A DNA stretch of 64,000 nt, from the NCBI GenBank assembly GCA_015068725.1, contig SVKA01000006.1, forward strand, positions 11,562 through 75,561, in the 5' to 3' direction. A model generated the notes under the pieces. The model made no database searches. It was not told where the DNA came from and saw only the letters and a program-made list of their open reading frames with translations. Positions 1 through 46,904 of the stretch are shown here, in pieces; position 1 is the first letter of the stretch, and each line of letters starts with the position of its first letter. A program made the translations under genes and the position numbers. This DNA comes from Oscillospiraceae bacterium (GTDB lineage: Bacteria > Bacillota > Clostridia > UBA1381 > UMGS1253).

Positions 1-208
1 TTGGGAAATATTTGCCGAACTCACCGCGGAGCGGCTGCCGTGAAATTCTTTGAGAGTAGGGGCAGACGGGAACTCCCGTAACAGAGTAAAGATGTGATGG
101 CATCTAAGGGCATCCTTTAAGGATGAAGAAGAGTGGTACCGCGGAAGCATAATAAGGATTTTACGCTTTCGTCTCTTTGAAATCAACGAAGAGACGAGGG
201 CGTTTTTT
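1..208 (+). promoter_or_regulatory. T-box leader (tRNA-sensing transcription attenuator), 5'-truncated by the window edge; probable Leu (CUC) specifier
   Basis: T-box core AAGAGTGGTACCGCGG at 129-144. Stem III-like hairpin CATCCT/AGGATG at 111-125. A 14-15 bp terminator helix (164-177 pairing with 189-202) is followed by TTTTTT at 203-208. GAA-CTC-A at 17-23 fits the specifier-loop pattern. Stem I runs off the window. Confidence 0.8.
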
Positions 209-252
209 GTTGATTGGAAAAGAAAGGGTTAAAACGAAAGGGGTTTTATTAG

Positions 253-1641
253 GTGAAAAAAATCAATGTATCAGACATTACGTTAAAAAAGCTGGCACAG
301 GACAGAGAGGTTTCGCTTTTGTTTCGCGAAAAGACGGCAATTGCCGCTTGTGCAGATGCGCTTGGCGTAGATGCTATTGAGCTTTCGGCAATTAAAAATT
401 TGCGCGAAGATACTATTGTTTATAAAACGATTGCAAAAAATATTCAAAAGAGCATTGTTGCAATTCCTGTTGGTTTTTCATCTGATGATGTAAAAAATGC
501 GTGGGAATGTGTGAAGGAAGCCGCAGCACCGAGATTGCAGGTAGAAGTACCGACATCCACAGTTCAGATGGAGTATATGTATCATCTTAAGGCGGATAAA
601 ATGATAGCAAAAATTGCCGAGCTTGTTACAGAGGCAAAAAAGCTTTGTAATGATGTAGAGTTTGTTGCAACAGACGCTACACGTGCTGATGAGGAGTTTT
701 TGATTGAGGCAGTAAAAACGGCTGAGCAAAATGGTGCCAAGATAATTACAATTTGTGATGATGCAGGTATAGCACTTCCGGAAGAAATTGCAGCGCTTGT
801 TTCTAAGGTAAAGCAGGCTGTAAATGCAGATGTTTATGTGCAGGTATCTGACGCTATCGGTATGGCGGTATCTGCAGCAGTGGCGGCAATCAGTGTAGGC
901 ATTGATGGTCTAAAGTGTGCAATGGCAGGCGAAAATTCGCTTTCTATGGGCGCTTTGTCAAAAGCTATTTCAGCGCGCGGCGATGCGATTGGCGTTTCGG
1001 TAGCGTTAGAAAACACAAAAATTCACGCAAGCATTGATGATATGCTTTCAAAAATTAACCATGAAGCCTACAAAAGCGCAGATGATATAAGTGAGAAAAA
1101 GAAGATTTTGCTCGATGAGGATTCGACGCTTTCTGACGTGGCTTATGCGGCAAAGGTGCTCGGATACGATTTGTCGGATGAAGATAACGGCAAGGTGCAT
1201 AAGGTGCTTATGCAGGTTTGTGAAAAAAAGGGAAGCGTTGGTGCAAAGGAATTTGAGGCTCTTATTGCAAGCAACGCAATGCAGGCACCGTCAACATATC
1301 ATTTTGAAAGTTATTCAACAAGTTGCGGCAATTTGACGACGGCAATGTCACAGGTAACTCTTAGATGCGGTGATGAAATTCTTTGCGGCGTAAGCATAGG
1401 TGATGGTCCGATTGATTCGGTATTTCGTGCGATTGAGCAAAGCATTGGCTATCATTATGAGCTTGATGATTTTCAAATTCAGTCGGTAACAGACGGCAAG
1501 GAAGCACTTGGTTCTGCTTTGGTAAAGCTTCGCGTAGGCGGCAAGCTTTATTCAGGAAACGGCAGCTCTACCGATATTGTAGCGGCAAGCATCAGGGCAT
1601 ATATAAATGCACTCAACAAGATTGTGTTTGAGGAGGCGTAA
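253..1641 (+). CDS. LeuA-like protein: 2-isopropylmalate synthase-family TIM barrel with degenerate catalytic motifs plus a C-terminal LeuA regulatory/dimerisation domain
   Basis: GTG start 9 nt after AAAGGGG. Collinear with IPMS (TSTVQMEY, FVATDATRAD, ICDDAGIALP). The C-terminus (GDGPIDSVFRAIE...STDIVAASIRAYINALNKI) resembles the LeuA_dimer domain. DITLKKLAQ replaces DTTLRDGEQ, and VQVSDAIGMAV replaces HxHNDxGxAV. Confidence 0.85.
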   Translation: MKKINVSDITLKKLAQDREVSLLFREKTAIAACADALGVDAIELSAIKNLREDTIVYKTIAKNIQKSIVAIPVGFSSDDVKNAWECVKEAAAPRLQVEVPTSTVQMEYMYHLKADKMIAKIAELVTEAKKLCNDVEFVATDATRADEEFLIEAVKTAEQNGAKIITICDDAGIALPEEIAALVSKVKQAVNADVYVQVSDAIGMAVSAAVAAISVGIDGLKCAMAGENSLSMGALSKAISARGDAIGVSVALENTKIHASIDDMLSKINHEAYKSADDISEKKKILLDEDSTLSDVAYAAKVLGYDLSDEDNGKVHKVLMQVCEKKGSVGAKEFEALIASNAMQAPSTYHFESYSTSCGNLTTAMSQVTLRCGDEILCGVSIGDGPIDSVFRAIEQSIGYHYELDDFQIQSVTDGKEALGSALVKLRVGGKLYSGNGSSTDIVAASIRAYINALNKIVFEEA

Positions 1642-1643
1642 GG

Positions 1644-4103
1644 ATGAAACTGACCTTTTCTACAAAAAACGTAAACAGAGCATCTTTTTTTGATACCTGT
1701 CGTTATGCGTATGATTACGGATATGCGGGTTTTGAGATTTATGATGCAATAAAAGAGAGAAAACAACACCACGATAGTATTCTTCGAAGTGAACGCACGG
1801 CAGATTCTAAAAGAAAGCTTTTTAATCGTGGACTTAATGTTTCTGCTTTGGTGTATCCGTATCCGATAGAGAGTAGTGATGCGACCGCGGATTCCGTTGT
1901 AAAATATGTAGATATGGCGGCAAATGCGGGAATTGAGCGCATTATTGTGCGCATCGAGGAAAAAACCTCGAATGAGGTGCTTTGTGAAAAGATTGGCGAG
2001 GCTGTTAAAAAGGCAGGGAATGCTGATATTCAGATATTGTTTGAAACATCGGGTTATCTTGCAAAAACAGAGAACGTAATTGATATTATAAACTTTTTCT
2101 CTTCTGCGGCGGTAGGTGTTTCGTGGAATACGCGCGAAACGTACTTTAGAGCAGGTGAGAGCGCAGATACTACAATCAAAACGCTTGGTGCGTATATAAA
2201 ATATGTACGTCTTGGTGATATGAAGGATGGCAAAAGTGTGCTGATAGGAGAGGGCGAGCTTCCCGTAACAAACGTTATTAATGCTCTTTCTTCGCTGAAT
2301 TTTGACGGATATATCTGTGTCGATTGGAACGAAGAAATACAAGACGCCGATATTGTACTTACACATTTTACAAATTATATTGGAGGACTTTCCCGAAAGA
2401 AAAAGGAGAAAGACGGTGCATACTATAACCGCGACAAATCCGGTACGTTTGTGTGGAAAAAATACGACGTTATCGACGCAACTTTTTCCGATGTGCTTGA
2501 TACAATGGTTGAAAAGTATCCTGACCAGTATGCGTTTAAATACACAACGCTTGATTACACAAGAACGTATTCGCAGTTTCGTCGCGATGTAGACGAATGT
2601 GCGGCAGCGCTTATATCGCTTGGTGTAAAGGCGGGCGACCACGTTGCTATATGGGCGACGAATGTGCCTGCATGGTTTATTACCTTCTGGGCAACGACAA
2701 AAATCGGTGCAGTACTTGTTACAGTCAATACAGCATATAAAATTCATGAGATTGAATATCTTTTAAAGCAGTCAGATACACATACGCTTGTGATGATTGA
2801 GGATTGCAAAGATATTAACTATAAAGAAATTATCGAAGAACTTTGTCCCGAGCTTAAAAATATAAATCCGGGAGAGCCACTTTATTCGAAAAATCTTCCG
2901 TTCCTGCGAAATGTTGTTACGGTTGGATTTTCAATGGATGGCTGTCTTACATGGGAGCAGATGCTTGAGCGCTCATCGCTCATACCTCAGGAGGAGGTGC
3001 GCCGCAGAGCATCGCTTGTAAAGCCTGACGATGTTTGTAATATGCAGTATACATCAGGTACGACGGGATTTCCGAAGGGCGTTATGCTTACGCACAGAAA
3101 CATTGTTAATAATGGTAAAACTATTGGCGACAGAATGGATTTATCAACGGCAGATCGCATGATGATTCAGGTACCGATGTTCCATTGTTTTGGTATGGTG
3201 CTATCCATGACATCGATGATGACGCATGGCGGTACGCTCTGTCCAATGCCGTATTTTTCGCCAAAGTCATCGCTTGCATGTGTAAATGATGAGCATATTA
3301 CATGCTTCAACGGCGTGCCGACAATGTTTATAGCAATGTTTAACCACGCAGATTTTGCAAAAACAGACTTTTCGTATATGCGTACGGGAATTATGGCGGG
3401 CGCAAACTGTCCTGCGGATTTGATGCGCCGTGCATCTGTCGAGATGAATATGCGTGAGATTATTTCCGTATACGGTCAGACCGAGGCTTCGCCCGGATGT
3501 ACGATGGGCGAGGTTAATGAGGACCTTGACCACAGAGTTGAAACTGTTGGAAGCGCTTTTCCGGGAGTTGAATGTAAGATTATTGACCCTGAAACAGGCG
3601 AGGAGCTGCCTGATGGTGAAAGCGGCGAATTTGTTGCGCGTGGCTTTAACATTATGAAGGGCTACTATAAAATGCCCGAGGCAACAGCACAGACGATTGA
3701 TGCAGACGGATGGCTTCATTCGGGGGATATTTGCTGCAGAACATCTGACGGATATTACAAGGTTACAGGACGTCTTAAAGATATGATTATCCGTGGCGGT
3801 GAAAATCTTTATCCGCGTGAAATTGAAGAGTTTTATCTTACACATCCGAAGGTGCGCGACGTTCAGGTTGTAGGTGTGCCCGATGAAAAGTACGGTGAAG
3901 AATGTTGTGCGTGGATTATTCTTCATAAAGGGGAAGAGTCGGACGAAAATGAGATGCGTGAGTATGGTAATGCCTCTATTGCCCGCCATAAAGTGCCAAA
4001 GTACTTTGTGTTTGTAAAAGAGTTCCCCATGAATGCAGCAGGTAAAATTCTAAAATATAAGATGCGTGATGAATCGGTAGAAATTTTAGGATTAAAAAAG
4101 TAA
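1644..4103 (+). CDS. Fusion protein: N-terminal xylose-isomerase-like TIM barrel (sugar phosphate isomerase/epimerase family) plus C-terminal AMP-forming acyl-CoA synthetase
   Basis: The ATG lies 2 nt after the upstream stop. Residues 1-250 resemble AP_endonuc_2/TIM. Residues ~260-819 carry adenylation motifs YTSGTTGFPKGV, VYGQTEAS, GDICCRTSDGYYKVTGRLKD and the C-terminal GKILK. Confidence 0.85.
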   Translation: MKLTFSTKNVNRASFFDTCRYAYDYGYAGFEIYDAIKERKQHHDSILRSERTADSKRKLFNRGLNVSALVYPYPIESSDATADSVVKYVDMAANAGIERIIVRIEEKTSNEVLCEKIGEAVKKAGNADIQILFETSGYLAKTENVIDIINFFSSAAVGVSWNTRETYFRAGESADTTIKTLGAYIKYVRLGDMKDGKSVLIGEGELPVTNVINALSSLNFDGYICVDWNEEIQDADIVLTHFTNYIGGLSRKKKEKDGAYYNRDKSGTFVWKKYDVIDATFSDVLDTMVEKYPDQYAFKYTTLDYTRTYSQFRRDVDECAAALISLGVKAGDHVAIWATNVPAWFITFWATTKIGAVLVTVNTAYKIHEIEYLLKQSDTHTLVMIEDCKDINYKEIIEELCPELKNINPGEPLYSKNLPFLRNVVTVGFSMDGCLTWEQMLERSSLIPQEEVRRRASLVKPDDVCNMQYTSGTTGFPKGVMLTHRNIVNNGKTIGDRMDLSTADRMMIQVPMFHCFGMVLSMTSMMTHGGTLCPMPYFSPKSSLACVNDEHITCFNGVPTMFIAMFNHADFAKTDFSYMRTGIMAGANCPADLMRRASVEMNMREIISVYGQTEASPGCTMGEVNEDLDHRVETVGSAFPGVECKIIDPETGEELPDGESGEFVARGFNIMKGYYKMPEATAQTIDADGWLHSGDICCRTSDGYYKVTGRLKDMIIRGGENLYPREIEEFYLTHPKVRDVQVVGVPDEKYGEECCAWIILHKGEESDENEMREYGNASIARHKVPKYFVFVKEFPMNAAGKILKYKMRDESVEILGLKK

Positions 4104-4109: not shown

Positions 4110-4141
4110 AAAAAAATGCACCCCGCAGGGTGCATTTTTTG
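4110..4141. terminator. Bidirectional rho-independent terminator between convergent genes
   Basis: A-run, then TGCACCC-cgca-GGGTGCA, then T-run. Confidence 0.8.
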
Positions 4142-4159: not shown

Positions 4160-7100
4160 TTATTTCTTTTCTGTAAATACAATCTCAACAAGTGAGTTCC
4201 ACTTATTTACGCTGTTTCCATAACCCTTGTATTTTACATATCTTGCCTTTGCACCACCAAGGTCAAACGGCTCAAGCTCTCCCGTTTTAAATGTACCACT
4301 TGTTTCCATACCGGTAATCACCGGCGTATAGTTTACGCCATCCTCGGAAACTTCTATGTCGAATTTGTATTTTCTTACATTACCCTGCATAAACGTGAAC
4401 ATAACCTTGTCAAGCGTTTTTACTCTGCCAAAATCATATATACCCCATGCGTCGTGATTATCGCTTGACACACCCCAATATGTGCCATAATTGCCATCAA
4501 AGCTTGCTTCAATTTGTCTTGCAGGATTTGCCTCTGCTCCGCTTTGTTCAGCTTTTACAATCTTGATATAATTTTCTACTCCAAGCTCTTTTTGTCCGTC
4601 CATAGCAGGGATTATTGTTACCTTTTCTGCAAATTCATCCCACGAAACCTTTGCGCCAAGGTTTTCAGCAACAAAACGTACAGGAATTACAAATCTGCCG
4701 TCAATTATCATCGCCGGAACATCAAGTTCAACTGGTTCATCATTTACATAAACCGTATTCTGATTTTCTGTAATTACTATCCTTGTATCACCATTATCAG
4801 CCGTTGCTGTCAAGGTTGCCTCATCCCAAGTTACCTCAGCATCCATAGCCTCTAAAAGCGCACGCATAGGAATAAGCGTTCTGCCATCTCTTATTGTCGG
4901 TGGTACATCTGAATAGAGGAAGTTGTTGTTAAAGAAGATTGTTACGCCTTCAACCTCGGGTGCGCCACCGTCTGTAAACTTTTTGTCTGCATCTGCGCTT
5001 GCATAGGTAAGTGTATACTCACCTGCAGGAGCAGTAAAGTAGATTATACCACCATCTTCTGATGCAATCTGTGTGTCGATTTCGCTACCGTTTACAGATA
5101 TTTTCCACGTACCTGCCTCAAGACCTGCAACGTTAACCTTGAGCGCAGCTTCGCCACCCGGAACTGTGAATGTTACAGCATCCTTTGTGCGAGCCTTGTT
5201 TTTATTAAACATAACAACTCTGTCAAATATCTTTGCACCGGCAAAGCTGTCTGTTTCAATAAGTTCTGCCTTTTCAACAGGTGAATTATCATCAGCATTG
5301 CCAACGTACATTACATTTAACATATAGTCAACCTTGCCCGACTTCTTTGGCATAATTTCAACTCTGCCCCATCCTGCTTCAAGGCTACCACTAACATCTT
5401 CAACTCTGCCCGCATCGGAACCTGTTGCTTTGCCTGATTCTTCCAAAGTAAACCAGTTCTGGTCTTTGTTCCAGAAGCGCTTATCTTTTCCGCCGATTTT
5501 TTCAATCGCTAAATTTTCAGCAGCAGGAAGAAGTGTCTGATTTACAAGTTTGCCGTTATAGTCACGCTCTGTTCTTTTTATTGTAGTAACGTTACCGCTA
5601 ACCTCAGGCTCTTCTTGTGAGTGAAGAAGAAATGCCTTTTTCTTTCCGCCAACCTTTGTATCAACCTTGTCAAACACAACAAACGCAGCAGGATTTTTCT
5701 CGTTACCTGTCGGAAGGAAAATCATATGACGAAGAGCTTCGTTTACGCCATCATCACTGTCAGAAGTGTATGCGTTTGCAATATCACCTGCTATATATGA
5801 ATATTCCGGATACTGCAAATCAGGACCAAACTCGTGGCCAATAACGTCTGCCCAGTGATTTTCCTTATTTTCCTGATAACCCTTCCATGTACTATCAATC
5901 CAGTAGAAGTTCTTTCCGGATCTGCTATCTACACCAATTCCGCCTATACCCTGGTTCTGATTGCCCCATTTATTATAATCAGTTTCTATTACAAGTGTGT
6001 TATGTGCAACAGACTGCACGGTATAGTGTGCATGCTGATCTGAGCTATGTTTTTCATACCAGCCCGAGTCATTTGCCAAAATACCTTTATAGTAAATCAT
6101 AAAGTGTCCGCAGTCATAGTGCGCATGGTTCATACCATTGTACTCACCAATCATCATCGTCGCTACAACGTCGTTTGACTTTGTGCCCATATTCCAGCCT
6201 GTACGTGCAACCATCTCACCAACCGGTGAACCAAAATATTTTGTAAGCGGAAGTGTTTCGGCAGATGCCTTTGTCGCATCAACTGAAATATCATTGAGCA
6301 GAAGCATTTCCGTAGGAAGTACACCCTCTCGGCCAATTCTTGGTTTAAATCCGCCCTGATATAAAAATTCTTTTTTCAAAATTGGATCGCCCTGTAAAAC
6401 CGAGCCCATAAACATACCGTCTGTGCCCTTCATTGCGTATGTATTTTTCGGTATTCCGTTAAATCCTGCAGTATCATCGCCGTCAATCATCAAAAGACCA
6501 TCGGGGCGACGCTTATATATCCACTCATACATAAGGCTTGCAAGCTGGTCTTCATTGAACAGTTCATAACCACTCATACGTTTAACAAGCATATGTGCAT
6601 ATGCCAAAGATGTATAACGATTCATAAGTCCATAGCAGCTTCCCTGTGAATGTTGTCCCGACTGAGTCCACCAGTTTGTATATGCAACAGACTCATCAGA
6701 CAATATCTTGCCCATTACAAGGTTATATGCATCGGGATATTCGTCATAAGCGGCAATCGCCATTACAAGCCAGTCACGATAAAGCTGTGCTTCGGCGCCG
6801 TGACCGCAGATGATAGTCTGTTTGTCCGGTGGGAAGCCAACCTCCATATCGGATGATATCTGCTGTGCAAGAAGCATCAGTTCTGCTTTATCCTTCTCAC
6901 TAAGCAATGGATAACACCAGTCATATACCTGACCAATGGTTTTTAATGCATGTCCTTCATTACGAGTATTATCACCTATCGCCGAAAAATCAATAGATTC
7001 TGCATAAGTTTTCATTGCAGAAATTGCCTGTTTAGCGTTTTCTTCGTTTCCATACAGCGCATAATCAAGCGCTTTTGCCGAAATTATCTCAAGTCCTCTA

Positions 7101-7954
7101 GCATTATAATTCGAAGATGTATTTGCAAGCACGCCATTATATTCTGCATCTTTAAGCGAGTTAAACTCTTTAACAATTTCAGTCATTTCCGGACTTGCTA
7201 TATTTTCCATAATTTTAGGAATATCCTTTTTTGTAAAAAATACTCTCGGATGCTCCGGAGGTGGTGTTATTGTAGGAATAGGATAGCGGTCCTCGGGCAT
7301 TTTGGCCGGTTTGCCAACTTCTGCAGGATCAGGCAACTTACCCGTCCCTTCCGGTTGATAAGCAGTATGTTTAGTTATAATAATCTTATCCAGTATACAT
7401 CCGGGTTCACGGGCTTGTATACGTATTTTTTGTTTATCGCCGGCATTTTCAACCAATATTGAACCCATTCTGTCCCATCTGTAGTCCGTTTCATGTTCAG
7501 ATAACTGTCCTGCAAAGCCATCAGAAAGGTAGCCTGTGTTACCTGTTCTGTATTCAGTAGCACCATAATCAATAAAGATTGTGTCACTGCCACCGGTCAT
7601 TGCCAGAAAGCGAACCCACATATTATATTTGCCCGCCTGATCAAATTCTACCTCAAAGCCTACCATAGCAGGGGTATCCGGTGCAGGTGTCACCAAATTT
7701 GTGGGGATAAACTTTACGTGTTTTCTGCCCGACGCTTCTTTGGCATTTTCTATTTGTACATTCCCCGGGTCAATAACATGTTTTTCAAGCTCGACCGCAA
7801 CCGAGCCTGCCTCCGTAGTATACAGTGCATACTTCGTCGGATCGTCAGCATCTGCCGAACCGGCACTTGTCATAACCGGATACACGGCAAATATACTCAT
7901 AAGCATTGTAAGTATCAAAACAAGTGTAATCGGTTTTACTGTTTGTTTTTTCAC
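4160..7954 (-). CDS. Secreted multidomain polysaccharide lyase (heparinase II/III-like) with an N-terminal CBM-like domain, a copper-amine-oxidase-N-like 'stalk' domain and a C-terminal F5/8 type C (discoidin/CBM32-like) domain
   Basis: Signal peptide MKKQTVKPITLVLILTMLMSIFAVYPVMTSAGSADA. EHPRVFFTKKDIPKI and NHAHYDCGHFMIYYKG are heparinase II/III-type motifs. A stalk-like repeat DGRTLIPMRALLEAM...GRFVIPVRFVAENLGAKVSW is present. The discoidin-like C-terminus contains FDGNYGTYWG. Confidence 0.75.
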   Translation of the reverse strand: MKKQTVKPITLVLILTMLMSIFAVYPVMTSAGSADADDPTKYALYTTEAGSVAVELEKHVIDPGNVQIENAKEASGRKHVKFIPTNLVTPAPDTPAMVGFEVEFDQAGKYNMWVRFLAMTGGSDTIFIDYGATEYRTGNTGYLSDGFAGQLSEHETDYRWDRMGSILVENAGDKQKIRIQAREPGCILDKIIITKHTAYQPEGTGKLPDPAEVGKPAKMPEDRYPIPTITPPPEHPRVFFTKKDIPKIMENIASPEMTEIVKEFNSLKDAEYNGVLANTSSNYNARGLEIISAKALDYALYGNEENAKQAISAMKTYAESIDFSAIGDNTRNEGHALKTIGQVYDWCYPLLSEKDKAELMLLAQQISSDMEVGFPPDKQTIICGHGAEAQLYRDWLVMAIAAYDEYPDAYNLVMGKILSDESVAYTNWWTQSGQHSQGSCYGLMNRYTSLAYAHMLVKRMSGYELFNEDQLASLMYEWIYKRRPDGLLMIDGDDTAGFNGIPKNTYAMKGTDGMFMGSVLQGDPILKKEFLYQGGFKPRIGREGVLPTEMLLLNDISVDATKASAETLPLTKYFGSPVGEMVARTGWNMGTKSNDVVATMMIGEYNGMNHAHYDCGHFMIYYKGILANDSGWYEKHSSDQHAHYTVQSVAHNTLVIETDYNKWGNQNQGIGGIGVDSRSGKNFYWIDSTWKGYQENKENHWADVIGHEFGPDLQYPEYSYIAGDIANAYTSDSDDGVNEALRHMIFLPTGNEKNPAAFVVFDKVDTKVGGKKKAFLLHSQEEPEVSGNVTTIKRTERDYNGKLVNQTLLPAAENLAIEKIGGKDKRFWNKDQNWFTLEESGKATGSDAGRVEDVSGSLEAGWGRVEIMPKKSGKVDYMLNVMYVGNADDNSPVEKAELIETDSFAGAKIFDRVVMFNKNKARTKDAVTFTVPGGEAALKVNVAGLEAGTWKISVNGSEIDTQIASEDGGIIYFTAPAGEYTLTYASADADKKFTDGGAPEVEGVTIFFNNNFLYSDVPPTIRDGRTLIPMRALLEAMDAEVTWDEATLTATADNGDTRIVITENQNTVYVNDEPVELDVPAMIIDGRFVIPVRFVAENLGAKVSWDEFAEKVTIIPAMDGQKELGVENYIKIVKAEQSGAEANPARQIEASFDGNYGTYWGVSSDNHDAWGIYDFGRVKTLDKVMFTFMQGNVRKYKFDIEVSEDGVNYTPVITGMETSGTFKTGELEPFDLGGAKARYVKYKGYGNSVNKWNSLVEIVFTEKK

Positions 7955-10050: not shown

Positions 10051-10866
10051 TCAAAATTGTGAGCAAAGCTTGTCATAGCAGGCCTTGATTTGTGGTATTG
10101 TATAACCCTTTTTATCGGTTAGCTCAAAAAGCACGGGGCCTGTGTAGCCCGACTTTAAAAGAAGTGAAAAAATCATTTTCCAGTCATTTACACCCTCATA
10201 AGGCAACAAATGTCTTTCGTTAATGCGGTCATAGTCGCTTACGTGTATGGTGATGATTTTGTCGCCGAATGCCTTTATAAAATCTTCGTTTGTATCCGTA
10301 AGAAGATGGTTTGTATCAAAGCATACGCGAAGTCTGAAATCGGCTGAAACAATTTTTGCCGTATCTTCAATAGTGTTTGCAAGGCATGTGCGCGGCAGAC
10401 ATTCCACCGCAAGCTCAGCTCCGAGTCTTTCAGCTTCATCTGCAAGAATTCTTATCGATGCCTTTGCATTTTCTGTGTGAATAAATCTTTTGTCGGGCTC
10501 AATCGGCTCATACGAGGGGTGAATTACAAATATTTTTATATCTGTATTTTCGCGCACAAAACGCATCATATCAAGCTGACGCTCGATTGCCTTTTTACGA
10601 ACTTCCTTATCAAGCGAGGCAATATCGTATGGGTCCCAAAACGAAAGATGTGCCGACCAGAGCTTGATATCCGCTTTTTTACAAGAATCAATAAGCTTTA
10701 ACCAATGACTTTGAATTACCTCATTTTCCATTCCGGGACATACTCCACCGATTGAAAGCTCTAACATATCAATTCCATTATCCTTGCACTCTTTTAGCAC
10801 TTCATAATCAGCCGAGGGCAAAAATGAGCTTGAAATTGCAAGTGGATTATTTGAAAGTTTTATCAT
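10051..10866 (-). CDS. Sugar phosphate isomerase/epimerase (xylose-isomerase-like TIM barrel)
   Basis: 271 aa with AP_endonuc_2-type pattern (VECLPR, FDTNHL, IHVSD, LFEL). Starts 40 nt after the polC stop on the same strand. Confidence 0.7.
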   Translation of the reverse strand: MIKLSNNPLAISSSFLPSADYEVLKECKDNGIDMLELSIGGVCPGMENEVIQSHWLKLIDSCKKADIKLWSAHLSFWDPYDIASLDKEVRKKAIERQLDMMRFVRENTDIKIFVIHPSYEPIEPDKRFIHTENAKASIRILADEAERLGAELAVECLPRTCLANTIEDTAKIVSADFRLRVCFDTNHLLTDTNEDFIKAFGDKIITIHVSDYDRINERHLLPYEGVNDWKMIFSLLLKSGYTGPVLFELTDKKGYTIPQIKACYDKLCSQF

Positions 10867-10906: not shown

Positions 10907-13900
10907 TTAACCAAGTAAATCTTCAAGAGACATCTGCGAGCTTGCCTGCATTCCGTTAAAGCAGCCGCTTTGTTCGAGTGAATCAAGGGCAGTTTTACTG
11001 ATTTTTGTTCGCATATGAAGGTCCTCGATTGAGTGGAATATTCCCTTCTCACGCTCTTCGCATATTGTAGTGGCCTGCGCAATGCTCACGTTTGGCAGAC
11101 TCGAAAGAGGGGGAAGAATTTTGTCGCCCTTTGGCAAAAAGTTTTTAGCATCCGACTCATACAAATCAACCGGTAAAAAGTCAAATCCGCGCGCATACAT
11201 TTCGCGGCAAAGCTCAAGTGTAGTGTATAAATCCTTATCCTTTTGTGTCGGGAGCGGAATGTTTTTTATATTTTTCATTGCCGCAAGAACCGTTTCAGCT
11301 CCATGGCACATAATGCTTGCATCAAATGCACCGAGCGCACGTATCGTAAAGTACGCACAGTAATATGCAATAGGGTAGTGCACCTTGCAGTAAGCAATAC
11401 GAAACGCCATCATTACGTATGCAACCGCATGCGCTTTCGGGAACATATACTTGATTTTGTTACATGAGTCTATATACCACTGCGGAACTTCGTGCGCCTT
11501 CATTTCGATTTCATCATCGCTGCTGAGGCCTTTTCCCTTACGCACCTTTTCCATTATTGTAAATGCCAGTTTTGGTTCAAGCCCCATATGTATAAGATAA
11601 ATCATTATATCATCACGCGTACAGATAGCTTCTGAAAGAACGATTTCGCCGCTTTGGATATAATCCTGCGCGTTGTTTGTCCAAACGTCTGTACCATGCG
11701 AAAGCCCCGATATACGAAGAAGCTCTGAAAACTTGGTCGGCTTTGTATCGACAAGCATCTGACGCACAAAATTTGTACCAAATTCAGGTACACCAAAGGT
11801 TCCGACCTCGCTTCCGATATCTTCACTTGTAACGTTAAGAGCTTCAGTATTCAGGAAAAGCGACAATGTCGGCTTGTCATCGAGCGGAATTTTCTTTGCG
11901 TCAATTCCCGTCAAATCCTCAAGCATTCTTATAACTGTCGGGTCATCGTGTCCGAGTATATCAAGCTTTAAAAGATTATCGTGGATGGAATGATAATCAA
12001 AATGCGTTGTTATAATTGTACTGTCCGCATCGTCGGCGGGGTGTTGTACGGGACAGAACTGATGTATATCGTTTGCCTTTGGCAAAATTATTACACCGCC
12101 CGGATGCTGACCGGTTGTGCGCTTTACGCCCGTACAGCCGAGCGAAATACGCTTGATTTCTGCATTATGAGCGACGATTGAGCGCTCATCAAAATATTTT
12201 TTAGCGTAGCCAAAGGCGGTTTTTTCGGCGATTGTGCCGATTGTTCCTGCACGAAAGACGTGCCCTTCGCCAAAAAGCTCCTCTGTATATTTATGTGCAA
12301 CGCTCTGATATTCGCCCGAAAAGTTAAGGTCGATATCAGGCTCTTTGTCGCCCTCGAAGCCCAAAAATGTTTCGAACGGAATGTCGTGTCCGTCTTTGGC
12401 ATAATTTTCGCCGCAAACAGGGCATACCTTATCTGGAAGGTCGCACCCAGATAAACCCGAGCCATCTGTGATAAACTCGCTGTGCTTGCAATTTTTGCAA
12501 ATATAATGCGCGGGAAGAGCGTTAACCTCTGTAATGCCCGACAAAAATGCGACAAATGACGAGCCGACAGAGCCACGCGAGCCGACCAGATATCCGTCGG
12601 AGAGCGACTTGCTTACAAGCTGCTGGGCGATTTTATACATAACCGAAAAGCCGTATGTGGTAATTGATTTTAGCTCTTTGTCCATACGCTGCTTTACAAT
12701 ATCGGGAAGTGGCTCGCCATAGATTTGTTTTGCCTTTTCGTTTGACATATTGATTATATCCTCCTGCGCGCCTTCAATGCTCGGCGGATACGTTCCTGAG
12801 CGTACGGGTGCAAGCACCTCGGTCATTTCACTTATGATATTTGGATTTTTTACTACAACCTCATATGCCGTTTCTTCGCCAAGATAGTCAAATTCATCGA
12901 GCATTTCCTGCGTTGTGCGAAGATATAACGGCGCCTGAAAATCAGCATCGTCAAAGCCTTTTCCTGCCATCAGCACACGGCGAAAAACCTCGTCCTCGGG
13001 GTCTAAAAAGTGAACGTCGCCCGTAGCAACGGTGAGCTTTCCGTGTTTTTTTCCAAGGGCAATAATTTTTTTGTTAATCTCCTGCAGATCCTCTTTTGAG
13101 CCAACCTGACCGTTTCTGAGCATAAATTCGTTGTTTCCGAGAGGCTGAATTTCAAAATAGTCATAAAATGCAGCGATATTGTCGATTTCCTGGGCGCTGC
13201 GACCTGAAAAAATTGCCTGATAAAGCTCGCCCGATTCACACGCAGAGCCGATGATAAGTCCTTCGCGATGCTTGTTTATAAGGCTTTTTGGCATACGCGG
13301 TGTACGGTAAAAATAGTCAAGATGCGACGCAGAGATAAGCCTGTACAAATTTTCGAGTCCGACAGGATTTTTTGCAAGTATGATTATATGATGCGACGGT
13401 ATGCCGCGCACATCAATTTTATCTCCAAAACAGGTGTTTAGCTCACATACATCGGTTACATTCATTTTTGAAAGCGCTTCTAGCATTTTTCTAAATATAT
13501 GAGCCGTTGCAAGAGCGTCATCGACAGCTCTGTGATGATTTTCAAGCGTTACTTTCAAATGCTTTGTAAGATTGTTTAATTTGTGGTTTTTAAGCTCGGG
13601 ATAAAGCTTTCGTGCAAGAGAGAGTGTATCGACATAGCACATAGAAAAGCTTTTGCCCATTCTTTCAAGGCTTGTACGAATAAAGCCTGTGTCAAAGTTT
13701 GCATTATGTGCTACAAGAACGCATCCCTCGCAAAAGCTTATAAAATCGGTTACTGCTTTTTCCTCCTTAGGTGCGCCCTTTACCATCGCATCATTAATCC
13801 CCGTAAGCTCGGTGATTTTTTGCGGTATCGCTACGGGCGGCTCGACAAAGGTGGAAAATGAATCTACAATTTCGCCTTCCCTGATTTTTACTGCGCCGAT

Positions 13901-14926
13901 TTCTATAATAAAGTTTGTTTCGGCGGAAAGCCCCGTCGTTTCAAGGTCGAAAACGACAAATGTATCGTTTAATTTGTGTGGTTTTTCATTATATGCAATA
14001 AGCGAGCGGTCGTCTACAACATAACCCTCTACGCCATATATTACTTTTATATTATTGTCCTTTGCGGCTTTTGCCGCCTCTGGAAATGCCTGCACAACGC
14101 CGTGGTCAGTTATAGCGATAGCTTTGTGCCCCCACGATGCCGCGCGCGCTATAAGGTCTGTTGCGCTCGACACTCCGTCCATAGTCGACATTTGCGTATG
14201 CATATGAAGCTCTACGCGCTTTTCTTTTGCATCATCTGTTTTTAATGGCGGAGCTTCAAGCTCATTTATATCATAAGCGGTGATAACAGTGTCGCGCGAA
14301 TATTTATCGTAAGCAACATCACCGTATACAGACACCCATTTGCCTTTTTTTAGACGCTTTTCAACTTTTTCTTTTTGCGCGCTGTCGCGCGTATGACCAA
14401 AAGAGCCATCTGCATTTTTCCTTGGCTGAAGATTGCAAAACAGCTTTACTGTTCGTGAATCCTTTTTATCTGTGATATCAAATGTTACAATCCACGAATG
14501 GTCTTTTCTTTCAAGCCATTCAACACAGAATATTTCGCCGCTTGTACGAACTCGTCCTGCTTCGGGGGTTACCTCGTCAAGGGCTAAAAGCTTGCCTTTG
14601 ATTTTTTTGCCTGCTATCACCTCGCTCGGCTTATTTGTGCCAAGCTGCGACTCAAACTGCTTTATAAGAGCCTCTTGTTCCGCCTGTTGGCGCAGCATTA
14701 TTTCGCTAACCACGTTTGATGATGGAATTTGTATATTTATATCATCAAGTCTATATTTAGTTATAAAAGTGTTTTTGAGCATCAAAAGCTGAGCTTCGGT
14801 AAGTGTAGACGTTTCAGAAAGCTCAATTGACATTGTGCGCTGCTTTTTATTTACACTGATTTTTGAAAGCTCGACTCCGGCAAGTGTATCGTCGCAGTCA
14901 GCAATCAAATCCTTGATTCTTGTCAT
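10907..14926 (-). CDS. polC: DNA polymerase III PolC-type
   Basis: PHP motif VELHMHTQMSTMDG, inserted 3'-5' exonuclease FVVFDLETTGLS...HRAVDDA, Zn module CKNCKHSEF...CPVCG, and polymerase core. Confidence 0.95.
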   Translation of the reverse strand: MTRIKDLIADCDDTLAGVELSKISVNKKQRTMSIELSETSTLTEAQLLMLKNTFITKYRLDDINIQIPSSNVVSEIMLRQQAEQEALIKQFESQLGTNKPSEVIAGKKIKGKLLALDEVTPEAGRVRTSGEIFCVEWLERKDHSWIVTFDITDKKDSRTVKLFCNLQPRKNADGSFGHTRDSAQKEKVEKRLKKGKWVSVYGDVAYDKYSRDTVITAYDINELEAPPLKTDDAKEKRVELHMHTQMSTMDGVSSATDLIARAASWGHKAIAITDHGVVQAFPEAAKAAKDNNIKVIYGVEGYVVDDRSLIAYNEKPHKLNDTFVVFDLETTGLSAETNFIIEIGAVKIREGEIVDSFSTFVEPPVAIPQKITELTGINDAMVKGAPKEEKAVTDFISFCEGCVLVAHNANFDTGFIRTSLERMGKSFSMCYVDTLSLARKLYPELKNHKLNNLTKHLKVTLENHHRAVDDALATAHIFRKMLEALSKMNVTDVCELNTCFGDKIDVRGIPSHHIIILAKNPVGLENLYRLISASHLDYFYRTPRMPKSLINKHREGLIIGSACESGELYQAIFSGRSAQEIDNIAAFYDYFEIQPLGNNEFMLRNGQVGSKEDLQEINKKIIALGKKHGKLTVATGDVHFLDPEDEVFRRVLMAGKGFDDADFQAPLYLRTTQEMLDEFDYLGEETAYEVVVKNPNIISEMTEVLAPVRSGTYPPSIEGAQEDIINMSNEKAKQIYGEPLPDIVKQRMDKELKSITTYGFSVMYKIAQQLVSKSLSDGYLVGSRGSVGSSFVAFLSGITEVNALPAHYICKNCKHSEFITDGSGLSGCDLPDKVCPVCGENYAKDGHDIPFETFLGFEGDKEPDIDLNFSGEYQSVAHKYTEELFGEGHVFRAGTIGTIAEKTAFGYAKKYFDERSIVAHNAEIKRISLGCTGVKRTTGQHPGGVIILPKANDIHQFCPVQHPADDADSTIITTHFDYHSIHDNLLKLDILGHDDPTVIRMLEDLTGIDAKKIPLDDKPTLSLFLNTEALNVTSEDIGSEVGTFGVPEFGTNFVRQMLVDTKPTKFSELLRISGLSHGTDVWTNNAQDYIQSGEIVLSEAICTRDDIMIYLIHMGLEPKLAFTIMEKVRKGKGLSSDDEIEMKAHEVPQWYIDSCNKIKYMFPKAHAVAYVMMAFRIAYCKVHYPIAYYCAYFTIRALGAFDASIMCHGAETVLAAMKNIKNIPLPTQKDKDLYTTLELCREMYARGFDFLPVDLYESDAKNFLPKGDKILPPLSSLPNVSIAQATTICEEREKGIFHSIEDLHMRTKISKTALDSLEQSGCFNGMQASSQMSLEDLLG

Positions 14927-14955
14927 GGTTTTCTCCTTTTAAGTATAAGGTGAGT

Positions 14956-16017
14956 TTACATTTTCTCAATTTCCTGCATAAGCGTCTTTACTATATTTTC
15001 CTGAGGCACTTTTTTTACAATTTCGCCCTTTTTGAAAATAAGTCCTACGCCATCTCCACCCGCAATTCCAATGTCGGCATCGCGTGCTTCGCCAGGGCCG
15101 TTTACAGCGCAGCCCATAACGGCAACCTTAATATCTTTATCAACATTTTTTGTAAGCTCATATACTTTATTTGCGATTTCAATAAGATTGATGCGGCATC
15201 TTCCGCAAGTAGGGCAGGACACAAAAGTAACACCGCTCTTTCTAAGACCGAGAGCTTTTAAAATTTCAATTCCCGCATAAACCTCTTTTACGGGGTTATC
15301 GGATAAGGACACACGAATTGTATCACCGATGCCTTCAGCAAGAAGTGTGCCTATTCCGACAGATGATTTTACAATGCCGCTCTCGTATGTACCGGCTTCG
15401 GTAACGCCAAGGTGCAAAGGATAGTCGCATTTTTCACTTGCAAGTCGATATGCCTTAATCATAGTAGGCACGTCCGAGGCTTTAAGCGAAAGCGCAATAT
15501 CATAAAAATCGCACTCCTCTAAAAGCTTTGCGTGCCCAAGCGCACTTTCAACAAGAGCTTCGGCAGTAGGCGAGCCATATTTTTGCAAAATGGATTTTTC
15601 GAGTGAACCACCATTCACGCCTATGCGTATGGGTATGTTTTTGCTTTTCGCCATATCGCATACGGCGCGAATTTTGTCTTTATCACCGATGTTGCCGGGA
15701 TTTATGCGTACCTTATCTACGCCGCCCTCCATACAAAGAAGTGCAAGCCGGTAATCAAAATGTATATCACATACAAGTGGTATGCTTATTTGCTTTTTTA
15801 TTTTGCCGACTGCTATTGCCGCCGCCTCGTCAGGTACGGCTACACGCACAATGTCGCAGCCTGCCTTTGTAAGCTCATTTATCTGGGCAACGGTTTTTTC
15901 TACGTCGCGCGTGTCGGTGTTTGTCATTGACTGCACGCTGACAGGGTTTTGGCCACCTATTTTTAAAGAGCCGACAGTTATTTCTTTTGTAATTTTTCTA
16001 TTGTTCATGAAAATCAA
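14956..16017 (-). CDS. ispG: 4-hydroxy-3-methylbut-2-en-1-yl diphosphate synthase
   Basis: [19 protein letters not shown] and the C-terminal SCPTCGR...GCAVNGPGE cluster motifs. Confidence 0.93.
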
Positions 16018-23420: not shown

Positions 23421-25754
23421 TCATACCCCAATGATATTTTTAACATTCTCTTCTGTAAGAGATATACCCATAAATTCATCTATAAATGCTTCAAACGAGC
23501 CTGATTCATTTTTATCAGAGCAACGAACAACCCATGCGCAAGTGTCGCCATAAGCACGGTAATCGCAATCCATTACGGCGTCATCATTGTTAAGCTCGAG
23601 CGGCTTAGAACACCACATACCCATATAGCTGTCGCCGACGCGCGCAAACATAAAGCCATCGCGCTTTACTTCTTCCTCCATCGCAAATGATGGCCAGTAC
23701 ATATGAGTGAATTTTGTCGGGTGATCATCGGGGATATTGTAATAACAATAAAGCGTATTATTATCTTGCATTAAAGCGGGGAATACGCCGTTTCCATACC
23801 AATAGTCAGGACGCATACCTCCAAAATCTTTTTCAGTACCCGGATGATTTACGAATGTATAACAACGGTTTGAAATAGCTGCATACCAAAGATGTTGCTG
23901 ATAGCCGTATTCACCGGGAACAAACAACGATGTTCCATGGAACCATTCGTTCATAACCTTTGTAGCATAATATTCGGTGTCTGTATATTTTTCCTCCGGA
24001 AGCGGTGTGCGCCTTGGAGAAGCAACCGATGTAAGCATATAGTTTTTCGTTTTTTTTGTAGTAATGCTTGCTCTTCCTGAATCAAATGTAACATTGGCAT
24101 TATTGCGCATAAGGTCCGTCAAATCATCAGGCATTTTATATGAGCTGTAATAGAAGTATATAAGCCAACCACTGTATGCTTGGGCGCAGTTTTCGTCAAT
24201 CGCATACAAAAGACTTTGCAGAGCTGAATCGTAAGGTGTGAGAGCTCCTCTGTATATTCTTCCCATAGGTGCCATATGTATACCATCAAAGCATTGAAGT
24301 GCCGCTTCGCGCATAATTCTGTCAAGAGTGTTTTTTGCGCGTGCTTTTATAACCTCGTCGGTTGAAAAATCATAAAGAACAAAAAGCGGCGCTGTTGTTA
24401 CAAGCAGATATCCGCCTGCCAAAAATTCTTCGAAACCTTCGTGTTCAATTACATCAAACCACTGGTTTATACGATTCATACCCTTTTTATATAGGTCTAT
24501 ACCACGCTTGCCTGAACGATGGAAAAATTCTTCGGGCCATATACTTCCGGCGAGCGTCTGACATACAAAAAATGTAAGTGCATGATTTTCGCTCCAGAAG
24601 CACATTGCATCTGCGCCTTCTTCGTCCATCCAATATCTGTAATCGAGAGCAACATCGTGTATCTTTTTTTTGTATTCGTCGCTTATGGGAAGCAGTTTGT
24701 AGATATACAACAAGCCCATAAGAGCAAAGTCGGAACAGTCTTTTCGAATTGCAACATATTCAAGTGCGTTGTCAATAAGCTTGTAATCTTCATCGCTGAT
24801 TGTTTGGTTGATGTAGTACTTGGAAAGAAAAGCAAAAAGTATTGACCAATCCGGGGTGAAGGGAGTGTTAGCAATTTTAGTTAATACTGCGTTTTTGCGT
24901 GATTGACTGGAATTGTCCTTGTTAAATACGAGCTTTTCATTCTGAAGAATGTCAAAACGACGCATAAATTGCTGTGAACATACGTCGAAAGATACTGCGA
25001 CATTTCTTTTGCCCGCTACACCATAAGAGCAGCCTTCATTCCAAACGTATTCGTCCTCGTCTAATTTAACTGTTACGGGGAAGGAAGGTTGTTTTTTTGA
25101 AACAAGCTTTGTTTTATCACAACGCAAATCACAAAGCCAGTTTTCAGCTTCTTTGAGCTTTGTGAGCGTATCGCTTTCTATGGGAAGCGTTACACATACT
25201 CCGTCTGTGTCAAAAAGCTGAAGCGAGAACATATTTCTTGTATCACGTACGCCAAAGTTCTGAAGAGATACAAAAATATCGTTTATGCCTTCTCTTAGCT
25301 CAAGAGTAATATCAAGATGACTTATCGGTTTATATACGGGGTCTTTGATGTTTGCACAGTGAGTACCATTAAGCCACATATCAACTGTGCAGTACGACCA
25401 GATTCTTGCGCGGACAGCTTTTGCCCTGTCGCTTACAAGCTGAGTTATAGCATGGATATTAACACTCGTAAGGGTGAAATAGAAAGTTGAAAAATCTATA
25501 TATGTATTGCGGTTTTTTGCATAAAACTTCCACTCGGCACCAAGTGAACTTTTCTCGCCAATAGTTCCCGATGGAGGAACCTGCGAGATGGGTTTTGCAA
25601 AAATTTTTCGCATATCAGCTTCAAATTTTAATTGGTTTTTGTCTGTATGAGGAGCAATAAATGGTTCTGTAACAGCCTCAGTTGTAAGATAATTTAGTAC
25701 ATACCCCTCTTTTGACAAAGAAAAACATACTTTTGAATCAGTCAATGTAAGCAC
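23421..25754 (-). CDS. Large cytoplasmic protein of unknown function; possibly a beta-sandwich plus alpha/alpha-toroid glycan-active enzyme
   Basis: Long ORF in good coding context with no signal peptide. The true start is probably GTG 25754 or TTG 25745, after the GAAAGG RBS and a TTGCTT-17-TATAAT promoter. The first ~50 codons of the ORF-track model (FSVCYFC x3) are translated tandem repeat plus promoter. The functional guess rests only on weak motif resemblance (ARIWSYCTVDMWLNG, CFWSENHALTFF). Confidence 0.6.
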   Translation of the reverse strand: MLTLTDSKVCFSLSKEGYVLNYLTTEAVTEPFIAPHTDKNQLKFEADMRKIFAKPISQVPPSGTIGEKSSLGAEWKFYAKNRNTYIDFSTFYFTLTSVNIHAITQLVSDRAKAVRARIWSYCTVDMWLNGTHCANIKDPVYKPISHLDITLELREGINDIFVSLQNFGVRDTRNMFSLQLFDTDGVCVTLPIESDTLTKLKEAENWLCDLRCDKTKLVSKKQPSFPVTVKLDEDEYVWNEGCSYGVAGKRNVAVSFDVCSQQFMRRFDILQNEKLVFNKDNSSQSRKNAVLTKIANTPFTPDWSILFAFLSKYYINQTISDEDYKLIDNALEYVAIRKDCSDFALMGLLYIYKLLPISDEYKKKIHDVALDYRYWMDEEGADAMCFWSENHALTFFVCQTLAGSIWPEEFFHRSGKRGIDLYKKGMNRINQWFDVIEHEGFEEFLAGGYLLVTTAPLFVLYDFSTDEVIKARAKNTLDRIMREAALQCFDGIHMAPMGRIYRGALTPYDSALQSLLYAIDENCAQAYSGWLIYFYYSSYKMPDDLTDLMRNNANVTFDSGRASITTKKTKNYMLTSVASPRRTPLPEEKYTDTEYYATKVMNEWFHGTSLFVPGEYGYQQHLWYAAISNRCYTFVNHPGTEKDFGGMRPDYWYGNGVFPALMQDNNTLYCYYNIPDDHPTKFTHMYWPSFAMEEEVKRDGFMFARVGDSYMGMWCSKPLELNNDDAVMDCDYRAYGDTCAWVVRCSDKNESGSFEAFIDEFMGISLTEENVKNIIGV

Positions 25755-25784
25755 GACCTTTCTTTTTTGATAAAATTCAGCTAT

Positions 25785-25813
25785 ATTATATTTTATATTG
25801 TCCGCAAAAGCAA
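25785..25813 (-). promoter_or_regulatory. SigA-type promoter of the orphan gene
   Basis: On the minus strand, TTGCTT, a 17-nt spacer, then TATAAT, about 30 nt upstream of the RBS. Confidence 0.6.
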
Positions 25814-25829
25814 TAAAAAAATCAAAAAA

Positions 25830-25896
25830 ACAAAAATAACAAACAGAAAAACAAAAATAACAAACAGAAAAACAAAAATAACAAACAGAAAAACAA
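25830..25896. repeat. Perfect 21-bp tandem repeat, ~3.2 copies (ACAAAAATAACAAACAGAAAA)
   Basis: Read directly. Units at 25830-25850, 25851-25871 and 25872-25892, plus a partial unit. It lies between the ATPase terminator and the downstream promoter. Confidence 0.95.
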
Positions 25897-25917
25897 GCCG
25901 TGGTCAAAACACGGCTT
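25895..25917 (-). terminator. Terminator of the P-type ATPase gene
   Basis: AAGCCGTG-ttttgac-CACGGCTT followed by a T-rich run on the minus strand, 9 nt after the stop. Confidence 0.75.
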
Positions 25918-46718: not shown

Positions 46719-46794
46719 TGGTGAGCCATCCGCGATTCGAACGCGGGACACCTTGATTAAAAGTCAAGTGCTCTGCCGACTGAGCTAATGGCCC
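46719..46794 (-). tRNA. tRNA-Lys(UUU)
   Basis: Cloverleaf folded by hand: acceptor GGGCCAT/ATGGCTC, anticodon loop CTTTTAA, T-loop TTCGAAT, encoded CCA. Confidence 0.9.
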
Positions 46795-46799
46795 GTATG

Positions 46800-46876: not shown

Positions 46877-46904
46877 GCATCACCAAAATAAATATATAAT
46901 AAAG

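Follow-up and report, generated by a model that had tools for sequence, protein, structure and literature searches.

In a stretch of 64,000 nucleotides from the genome of an Oscillospiraceae bacterium (contig SVKA01000006.1, positions 11,562 to 75,561; the whole stretch is called the window here), one gene fuses a xylose-isomerase-like TIM barrel to an AMP-forming acyl-CoA synthetase (ACS). The fusion gene directly follows a gene for a LeuA-like protein, and the two lie behind a leader predicted to be a T-box of the leucine class. Catalytic residues have been lost from both TIM-type domains, that of the fusion and that of the LeuA-like protein, and both genes are under purifying selection and are kept together, in a recurring neighbourhood, among relatives. 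All evidence presented here is computational. We judge it somewhat better than an even chance (a probability of roughly 0.55) that the fusion protein is an isovalerate-CoA ligase, induced by leucine starvation, for the synthesis of leucine by reductive carboxylation; within that reading we infer isovalerate as the substrate, leucine as the destination of the flux, a regulatory role for the catalytically dead LeuA-like protein, and a binding or docking role for the barrel.

The fusion gene and its operon

The elements of the operon, with positions in the window and residues of the encoded proteins, are as follows.

1..179, plus strand: T-box leader, 3' two-thirds (Rfam RF00230, 58.8 bits; the 5' end is cut by the window edge)
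163..209, plus strand: terminator hairpin of the T-box, a 17 bp stem followed by a T-run, competing with the antiterminator formed by 132-143 (terminator scan)
253..1641, plus strand: LeuA-like gene (LeuA paralogue), 462 aa, HMGL-like barrel and LeuA_dimer domain
1631..1636, plus strand: Shine-Dalgarno sequence AGGAGG, within the 3' end of the LeuA-like gene and serving the fusion gene
1644..4103, plus strand: fusion gene, ATG start, 819 aa, no internal stops (map of open reading frames, ORFs)
1644..2408, plus strand: xylose-isomerase-like TIM barrel, residues 1-255 (Pfam, AlphaFold2, Foldseek, profile alignment)
2409..2498, plus strand: Lys/Glu-rich linker, residues 256-285, followed by a conserved YYNR..TGTFVWKKYDVID segment that opens the ACS part (conservation strings)
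2505..4046, plus strand: AMP-forming acyl-CoA synthetase, Pfam AMP-binding and AMP-binding_C with all core motifs
4111..4140, bidirectional: terminator-like hairpin that ends the two-gene operon (terminator scan, ORF map)

Three Pfam domains are found in the 819-residue product, each above its cut-off: AP_endonuc_2 at residues 20-230 (53.2 bits; cut-off 31.1), AMP-binding at 288-675 (318.8 bits; 29.9) and AMP-binding_C at 726-801 (62 bits; 24.5). The frame is continuous through the junction region at 2400-2430, where a frameshift or missed stop had been considered, and the combination of PF01261, PF00501 and PF13193 in one polypeptide recurs in all 120 protein clusters listed as best matches (86-96% identity), which come from metagenome-assembled genomes (MAGs) of Oscillospiraceae and Clostridia. 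A scan of one genome per GTDB species returned 299 tblastn-confirmed stretches encoding a relative, and 80 of these 299 loci were fetched; they are referred to below as the close loci, and a further 80 loci on metagenome contigs (L083-L162) as the distant loci. The fusion is uninterrupted in 80 of the 80 close loci and is present in the 80 distant ones as well, so that a sequencing or assembly frameshift, or a missed stop at the junction, is excluded by an open frame in independent assemblies, and the fusion is real, as originally predicted. The architecture, first described as unusual, is uncharacterised but not rare, being abundant in animal-gut Clostridia: carriers among the hits include MAGs from goat, sheep, roe-deer and buffalo hindgut and Ca. 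Aphodoplasma. In databases the protein is named simply "AMP-binding protein".

The synthetase half is complete, in agreement with the original prediction, and each of the motifs quoted there could be located: YTSGTTGFPKG at residues 469-479, YGQTE at 610-614, GDICCRTSDGYYKVTGRLKD at 694-713 (GD..DGY....GRLKD) and GKILK at 800-804. The core set thus comprises the A3 P-loop, the A5 YGxTE motif, the A7/A8 GD...GRxKD hinge and the A10 catalytic lysine, and the domain has a ratio of nonsynonymous to synonymous substitution rates (dN/dS) of 0.029. Of the NCBIfam models it fits PRK12583 best, with 674.9 bits, still under the cut-off of 832, and its scores for the other models lie further under theirs; among the curated named NCBIfam subfamilies scored (PRK12583, FadD3, MbcS and others) none includes it, and the nearest solved relatives score only about 270 bits. 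Since the sequence matches no curated subfamily or close structure, the function must come from context. AMP-forming ligases run in the activating direction.

The stop codon of the upstream gene (TAA, 1639-1641) is separated by two nucleotides, GG, from the ATG at 1644. A tight junction is conserved: in 66 of 78 close loci the two genes are 1-3 nt apart, and among 63 distant ones they overlap by 4 nt in 30 and by 1 nt in 22, which bears out the translational coupling that had been proposed on the basis of the 2-nt gap. In every close locus whose sequence extends far enough, the LeuA-like gene stands directly 5' of the fusion; the same holds for L098 and for L100-L162, the exceptions L099 and L107 having too little upstream sequence. 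No pseudo-LeuA gene was found in a bioreactor clade, L083-L097.

The leader is identified as a putative leucine-class T-box by several features. On an identical JGI contig (L001, 8287-8536) the complete leader scores 128.5 bits against RF00230, above the gathering threshold of 93. The T-box sequence AGTGGTACCGCG lies at 132-143, and the specifier loop GAA-CUC-A at 17-23, with the leucine codon CUC at 20-22 as read from the alignment. An nhmmer search with this leader gave a match in 49 of the fetched loci, and a regular expression found CUC in the same register in 37 close loci. Among nine distant upstream leaders the specifier reads, on alignment, CUC in L084, L100, L104, L105, L108, L144, L149 and L160 and CUG in L121, all of them leucine codons. 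L084 belongs to the clade that lacks the pseudo-LeuA gene, and in its clade-mate L088 the fusion gene alone follows a T-box sequence. Because the hairpin at 4111-4140 closes the operon and the next gene is convergent, the predicted unit consists of the leucine T-box, the LeuA-like gene and the fusion gene.

In about 22 close loci (L009, at 4394-4575; L010-L027 except L021; L041; L050; L060; L068) the T-box is replaced, 5' of the leuA-like gene, by a conserved, Leu/Ile-rich leader ORF of 28-42 codons with the pattern M..F.ANILLLIAIIILAI.K..KNSAVCRV. A GC hairpin with a T-run (GACCTGCGGCAAGTGGTGCCGCAGGTCTTTTT) follows it in most of these loci, and the leucine codons in L009 are CTT CTT CTC. The arrangement resembles an attenuator, mediated by the ribosome and responsive to Leu and Ile, that has taken the place of the riboswitch, and it points again to control by branched-chain amino acids.

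Altered active sites in both TIM-type domains

In the AlphaFold2 model the N-terminal 270 residues of the fusion form a (beta/alpha)8 barrel of eight beta-alpha units, with a mean predicted local distance difference test score (pLDDT) of 92.9. Foldseek places it with UlaE, AsbF and sugar 3-epimerases (TM scores of 0.72-0.78, 12-17% identity; probability 1.00 to UlaE and AsbF), and together with the Pfam match this confirms the TIM barrel that the original prediction had placed there. Searched with the N-terminal domain, a set of 1.84 billion representative proteins yielded 571 relatives at E <= 0.001; many are fusions clipped at contig ends, and the others include full-length distant fusions (P0245, 840 aa; P0251, 776 aa) and true stand-alone barrels. 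Distant barrels are 32-40% identical to that of P0245, used as the query, which is itself 28% identical to the barrel of the window.

The consensus motifs of the barrel family are ET, WD.HH, VHxKD and LEW. In profile alignments the ET, WD and VHxKD motifs superpose on those of AsbF, and the alignments with Art22 and MJ1311 also reach LEW; the ET, WD..H, VHxKD and LEW motifs are, we presume, the holders of the Glu-Asp-His-Glu metal ligands of the family. The corresponding residues in the window are E134, N162, R164, R189, D192 and D227. Only one canonical ligand is therefore kept (E134), the other three being replaced (Asp by N162, His by R189, Glu by D227). Across the 160 fused genes the site occurs in two states.

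Window's clade (80 species loci): E134, N162, R164, R189, D192; Ala at 227 (Asp in this window only)
Distant members (L083-L162): D162, H164/H165, H189, D192, E227; E or K at 134

The replacements are invariant throughout the 80 species loci, and two nearby positions are now arginine. The clade also carries a conserved basic, His-rich segment of its own at residues 34-62 (DA.KER.QHHDSILR..R..D.KRKL.NR), and the barrel as a whole is under strong purifying selection (dN/dS 0.061). Because three of four metal ligands are replaced, keto-sugar chemistry of the fused barrel is unlikely, and the initial assumption of a catalytic potential on keto-sugars, on which such barrels normally act, is not supported. 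As the metal site is lost yet the domain is strongly conserved, the barrel in this clade is probably a ligand-binding or docking module and not a sugar isomerase, and for annotation purposes the fusion should not be read as one.

In a large subclade of the distant fusions (L103, L105-L115 and many of L118-L162) Glu134 is replaced by Lys (LLKTSG) with the Asp, His, His and Glu positions intact; on these alignments it is a second, independent remodelling of the barrel metal site. Stand-alone AP_endonuc_2 barrels also occur in sugar clusters, at 10051-10866 (minus strand) and 40615-41457 (minus strand) of the window and at 1-8170 of L001, together with GFO_IDH_MocA oxidoreductases and, in L001, with RhaA, an FGGY kinase and UxuA. 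Between the fused barrel and the two stand-alone genes of the window there is no detectable similarity, which rules out a recent duplication of a neighbouring sugar-cluster gene. The contexts of the true stand-alone relatives P0204 and P0231 consist of unrelated genes and give no clue to the ancestral function.

The upstream protein presents a parallel case. It matches the Pfam families HMGL-like (111.8 bits) and LeuA_dimer (100.6 bits), so that its original description as LeuA-like is apt for its domain content, but it is not an isopropylmalate synthase: it falls under every NCBIfam cut-off for LeuA, CimA and NifV (the best LeuA model giving 254.6 bits against 532), and its catalytic motifs are gone. 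Aligned with the isopropylmalate synthase structures 3ewb, 3rmj and 3eeg, it has DITLKKLAQ (nt 274-300) in place of DTTLRDGEQ, with loss of the substrate-binding Arg, the metal-ligand Asp and the Glu, and QVSDAIG (nt 841-861) in place of HCHNDLG, with loss of both His metal ligands (HxH). These losses are identical in 133 of 133 LeuA-like neighbours with a complete N-terminus. The allosteric and dimerisation domain, by its motifs GDGPIDS and GNGSSTDIVAASIRAY (G.G.STDI), is intact at residues 331-457; comparison of this domain with PDB sequences found no relative useful for mapping the leucine pocket. The gene is under purifying selection (dN/dS 0.088). On these residues the LeuA-like protein is a pseudoenzyme. 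The NCBI name of its family is "hypothetical protein", and annotations should not carry the upstream gene forward as an isopropylmalate synthase. A genuine LeuA giving leucine de novo, with the ACS supplying acetyl-CoA, was considered and is ruled out by the missing catalytic residues. Together the two proteins provide two clean cases of enzyme domains that lack catalytic residues and are under strong selection, and they make a pseudoenzyme-based regulatory mechanism directly testable.

A candidate route from isovalerate to leucine

For sixty years it has been known that anaerobes of the rumen and the gut make leucine, isoleucine and valine from isovalerate, 2-methylbutyrate and isobutyrate, the branched acids ("isoacids") that serve as feed additives. 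Such synthesis of branched-chain amino acids out of branched-chain volatile fatty acids is the rumen's classical route, and reductive carboxylation in rumen bacteria is said to go back to the work of Allison and Bryant in the 1960s. The origin of the carrier organisms in ruminant and other animal guts fits with it. The leucine T-box and the neighbourhood of the pair in relatives together supply a rationale for the chemistry, namely the activation of a branched-chain acid for leucine supply.

That neighbourhood is clearest in L009, where the fusion is followed on the same strand by genes for a branched-chain aminotransferase (BCAT), a small P-loop protein, and the alpha, beta and gamma subunits of a 2-oxoacid:ferredoxin oxidoreductase (OFOR). 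The BCAT scores 502.7 bits against PRK13357 (cut-off 307), and the OFOR alpha subunit passes the VorB model (546.6 against 399). The ORF layout of L050 is the same. BCAT and OFOR cluster genes also flank the pair in the distant loci L095, L099, L146 and L157, and BCAT alone in L110 and L142.

The same clusters contain sister ligases, 762-787 aa in length, in which an XRE-type helix-turn-helix (HTH) domain and a Cupin_2 domain precede AMP-binding, and which adjoin the P-loop and VOR genes. Their positions are these.

L142, 8213-10498 and 10787-13141: HTH-cupin-ACS fusions
L103, 1211-3565 and 3569-5866 (-): HTH-cupin-ACS fusions
L146, 88-2451 (-): HTH-cupin-ACS fusion
L157, 11177-13483: HTH-cupin-ACS fusion
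L121, 696-3071 (-): HTH-cupin-ACS fusion

Their best NCBIfam match is MbcS, at 437 bits and under the cut-off, and the specifiers of their T-boxes, read from alignment, are AUC (Ile) in L146 and L121 and GUC (Val) in L108. Purified MbcS of S. aureus activates 2-methylbutyrate and isobutyrate, and it uses isovalerate very poorly (PMC10026030). Because the sister ligases are MbcS-like and have isoleucine and valine T-boxes, and MbcS hardly uses isovalerate, isovalerate and leucine are left for the TIM-ACS fusion. On the simplest reading each branched-chain amino acid has a dedicated ligase, and the TIM-ACS fusion, acting on isovalerate, would be that of leucine. It is in itself unusual for an acyl-CoA ligase to bear a DNA-binding domain.

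We therefore envisage the following scheme. The operon would be switched on when tRNA-Leu is uncharged, through the T-box with its CUC specifier. The ACS part, the C-terminal 530 residues, would convert isovalerate (3-methylbutanoate), ATP and CoA to isovaleryl-CoA; a VorB-type OFOR would carboxylate this with CO2 and reduced ferredoxin to 4-methyl-2-oxopentanoate, which BCAT would turn into leucine. The pseudo-LeuA would be a non-catalytic partner of the ligase, most plausibly a leucine-sensing regulatory subunit as HisZ is for HisG, and the remodelled barrel, whose former metal site is now taken up by Arg164 and Arg189, could bind an anionic ligand or offer a docking surface. Going further, the dead LeuA might be a leucine sensor docked on the remodelled barrel of the ligase that imposes feedback inhibition on isovalerate activation; this extension, drawn by analogy, is tentative, and we think it possible but doubtful.

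Several points weigh against this assignment. The acyl substrate is not legible from the ACS as such, which lies under all named cut-offs and has no close solved relative. The specifiers were read from cmscan alignments, and in the distant leaders the codon is not in every case followed by the usual purine. Neither OFOR nor BCAT is encoded within the 64-kb window, so the genome must carry these genes at another place; and since VOR and BCAT both work in either direction, the cluster alone leaves the direction of flux unfixed. Distant members with a complete metal site imply that the barrel was probably an enzyme ancestrally, and it may have an unrecognised catalytic role here. Finally, the full-length AlphaFold2 model (mean pLDDT 76.9, predicted TM score 0.42, with pLDDT below 50 at the disordered linker, residues 252-257) shows no fixed packing of the TIM barrel on the ACS, a weak result given that the shallow alignment also degraded the ACS core.

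Of the alternatives, the one that survives best keeps the barrel catalytic: its Arg/Asn site would carry out a metal-independent step on a leucine precursor, such as the enolisation or tautomerisation of a 2-oxoacid, or would make the acid for the ligase. The strong purifying selection on the barrel, the invariance of N162, R164 and R189 at the former metal site and the conserved segment at 34-62 all speak for such a bifunctional enzyme, as do the distant fusions, which keep the full metal site, in one clade without the dead LeuA, and so suggest an ancestral catalysis tied to leucine. However, no step between isovalerate and leucine needs chemistry of this kind, the isoleucine and valine sister ligases bear an HTH-cupin module instead of a barrel, which looks like sensing and not catalysis, and the data name no candidate substrate; we regard this alternative as unlikely.

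A different destination for the product is decidedly unlikely too. The branched acyl-CoA might prime the synthesis of branched-chain fatty acids for membrane lipids, as with S. aureus MbcS, and thereby spare scarce leucine rather than make it; salvage of short branched acids for lipid primers by MbcS-type enzymes is established (PMC10026030), and since isovaleryl-CoA is normally derived from leucine, control by tRNA-Leu would also be sensible. The pair is, however, clustered and probably co-transcribed in relatives with BCAT and a VorB-type oxidoreductase, genes of amino-acid synthesis and not of FabH priming; T-boxes and leader-peptide attenuators typically govern genes of amino-acid supply; and the LeuA allosteric domain suggests sensing of leucine as an end product.

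We give equally little credence to another substrate for the ligase, whether isobutyrate, converted by reductive carboxylation to 2-oxoisovalerate and then to leucine by a genuine LeuABCD encoded elsewhere, or a broad range of C4-C6 acids. The VorB annotation does name 3-methyl-2-oxobutanoate, and the illegibility of the substrate leaves room for this choice, but a separate MbcS-like ligase with a valine (GUC) T-box is present in the same clusters, beside which a second isobutyrate enzyme under leucine control would be less economical, and the neighbouring LeuA is dead.

Very improbable is a bifunctional enzyme of conventional sugar chemistry, in which the barrel would isomerise, epimerise or dehydrate a keto-sugar or inosose and the ligase would adenylate and thioesterify the product or the substrate, like AsbF and then AsbC in petrobactin synthesis, where the product of AsbF is adenylated by AsbC. 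The domain does pass the Pfam AP_endonuc_2 threshold, AsbF, a 3-dehydroshikimate dehydratase, is among its best matches in structure and profile, and sugar clusters with stand-alone AP_endonuc_2 genes lie nearby. Against this stand the replaced metal ligands (N162, R189, A/D227) in all 80 species loci and the absence of detectable similarity to the stand-alone paralogues; moreover, the neighbouring sugar cluster is divergent, with the T-box in between, and is not conserved (replication genes occupy its place in L009), and all regulatory signals indicate leucine, not sugars. That the fusion is an artefact, with a frameshift in sequencing or assembly making two genes look like one, has a negligible probability, for no point was found in its favour, the linker has a dN/dS of 0.046, and the same open frame across independent assemblies had already refuted it.

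If the tentative extension, with the dead LeuA as a docked leucine sensor, is correct, the operon would be the dedicated entry step, controlled by tRNA-Leu and leucine, by which gut anaerobes reach leucine through reductive carboxylation; the HTH-cupin-ACS enzymes would be its counterparts for isoleucine and valine, and the pair would constitute a HisZ-like system of pseudoenzyme and allosteric subunit made from two degenerate TIM-barrel enzymes. In our literature search the genes of the activation step and their control were found unassigned in the dominant uncultured Clostridia. The locus is a concrete, testable candidate for the leucine branch, and its relatives are candidates for the isoleucine and valine branches, in hundreds of animal-gut species.

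Two further observations concern the clusters in relatives. A conserved protein of about 230 aa is encoded between or beside the BCAT and VOR genes (L009 9518-10207, L095 463-1299, L099 3650-4321, L146 2855-3571, L157 13572-14363); the L009 copy has a weak ParA/NUBPL P-loop match (25.7 bits, under the cut-off) and no NCBIfam family, the L146 copy has no Pfam match, and the protein may serve the oxidoreductase as an Fe-S or maturation factor. In L146, directly after the cluster BCAT, positions 11612-15091 encode a single-chain, NifJ-type pyruvate:ferredoxin oxidoreductase of 1159 aa, so that this high-GC locus holds two different 2-oxoacid oxidoreductases, the pseudo-LeuA/TIM-ACS pair and a ligase with an isoleucine T-box.

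Beyond the operon the window carries housekeeping and sugar genes; OFOR, BCAT and leuBCD are absent from it. The features there include the following.

4160-7954, minus strand, convergent with the operon: 1264-aa protein with heparinase II/III-like lyase domains, a Cu_amine_oxidN1 domain and an F5/8 type C domain (HepB model 461 bits, under the cut-off of 600), presumably a secreted polysaccharide lyase of the glycosaminoglycan type
23421-25907, minus strand: ORF of 828 aa, no Pfam family at E <= 1e-5
28527-29051, minus strand: ORF of 174 aa, no Pfam family at E <= 1e-5
44556-45503, minus strand: ORF of 315 aa, no Pfam family at E <= 1e-5
46719-47154, minus strand: tRNA cluster, Lys(ttt), Gln(ttg), His(gtg), Arg(tct), Gly(tcc); no tRNA-Leu occurs in the window

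Comparison with known systems

Among characterised enzymes the fusion is most readily compared with the acyl-CoA synthetases of the ANL superfamily that act on short or medium chains (PRK12583, the NCBIfam 'fatty acid CoA ligase family', with MbcS as a functional analogue), with which it shares complete domains, the core motifs and the predicted activation of a short branched acid from the environment. It differs from them in its N-terminal TIM barrel of 255 residues and its leucine T-box, and in scoring under the PRK12583 cut-off; MbcS, in addition, makes hardly any use of isovalerate, and in these genomes it is the separate HTH-cupin-ACS fusions that are related to it. To our knowledge there is no characterised ANL enzyme with an N-terminal TIM barrel, and our literature search found none.

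The barrel itself shares its fold with other PF01261 barrels, namely AsbF, the UlaE and SgbU epimerases, the Art22 isomerase and MJ1311 (TM 0.72-0.78), and the family profile aligns over its whole length, motifs included. It differs from them in its low identity (only 12-17%), in the replaced metal ligands of this clade, in being joined to an ACS and in lacking any link to sugar metabolism.

Like LeuA, the upstream protein combines an HMGL-like barrel with a LeuA_dimer domain and is encoded behind a leucine T-box, a position often occupied by real leuA genes, for example in Geobacter (PMC2700814). Unlike LeuA it is without the Arg, Asp and Glu of RDGEQ and the His residues of HxH, is shorter (462 aa against about 510-520), and lies under the equivalog cut-offs.

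A conceptual analogy is offered by HisZ and the short form of HisG, HisZ being a dead HisRS paralogue that passes histidine inhibition to HisG (PMC9734150). The shared plan, putative for the leucine pair, is an inactive paralogue that keeps an amino-acid-binding module and is encoded beside, and translationally coupled to, the enzyme of the first committed step towards that amino acid; the protein families of the LeuA-like/fusion pair are unrelated to HisZ and HisG.

With VOR-type reductive carboxylation, as in rumen bacteria and methanogens, the system shares the clustering of the pair with a VorB-type OFOR and BCAT in relatives, the accessory TIM barrel and the dead LeuA being additions to the classical scheme. 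No description of the fusion, of the inactive LeuA paralogue, or of a gene for isovalerate activation in the reductive-carboxylation pathway was found in the literature search. Judged by every sequence criterion, then, the ACS is an ordinary ANL enzyme; the barrel, on its predicted structure, is a member of PF01261 that fails the defining catalytic feature of the family, and the LeuA-like protein stands in the same relation to the LeuA family. What is new here is a known class of enzyme with an undescribed accessory domain and an undescribed pseudoenzyme partner, in a clear physiological context.

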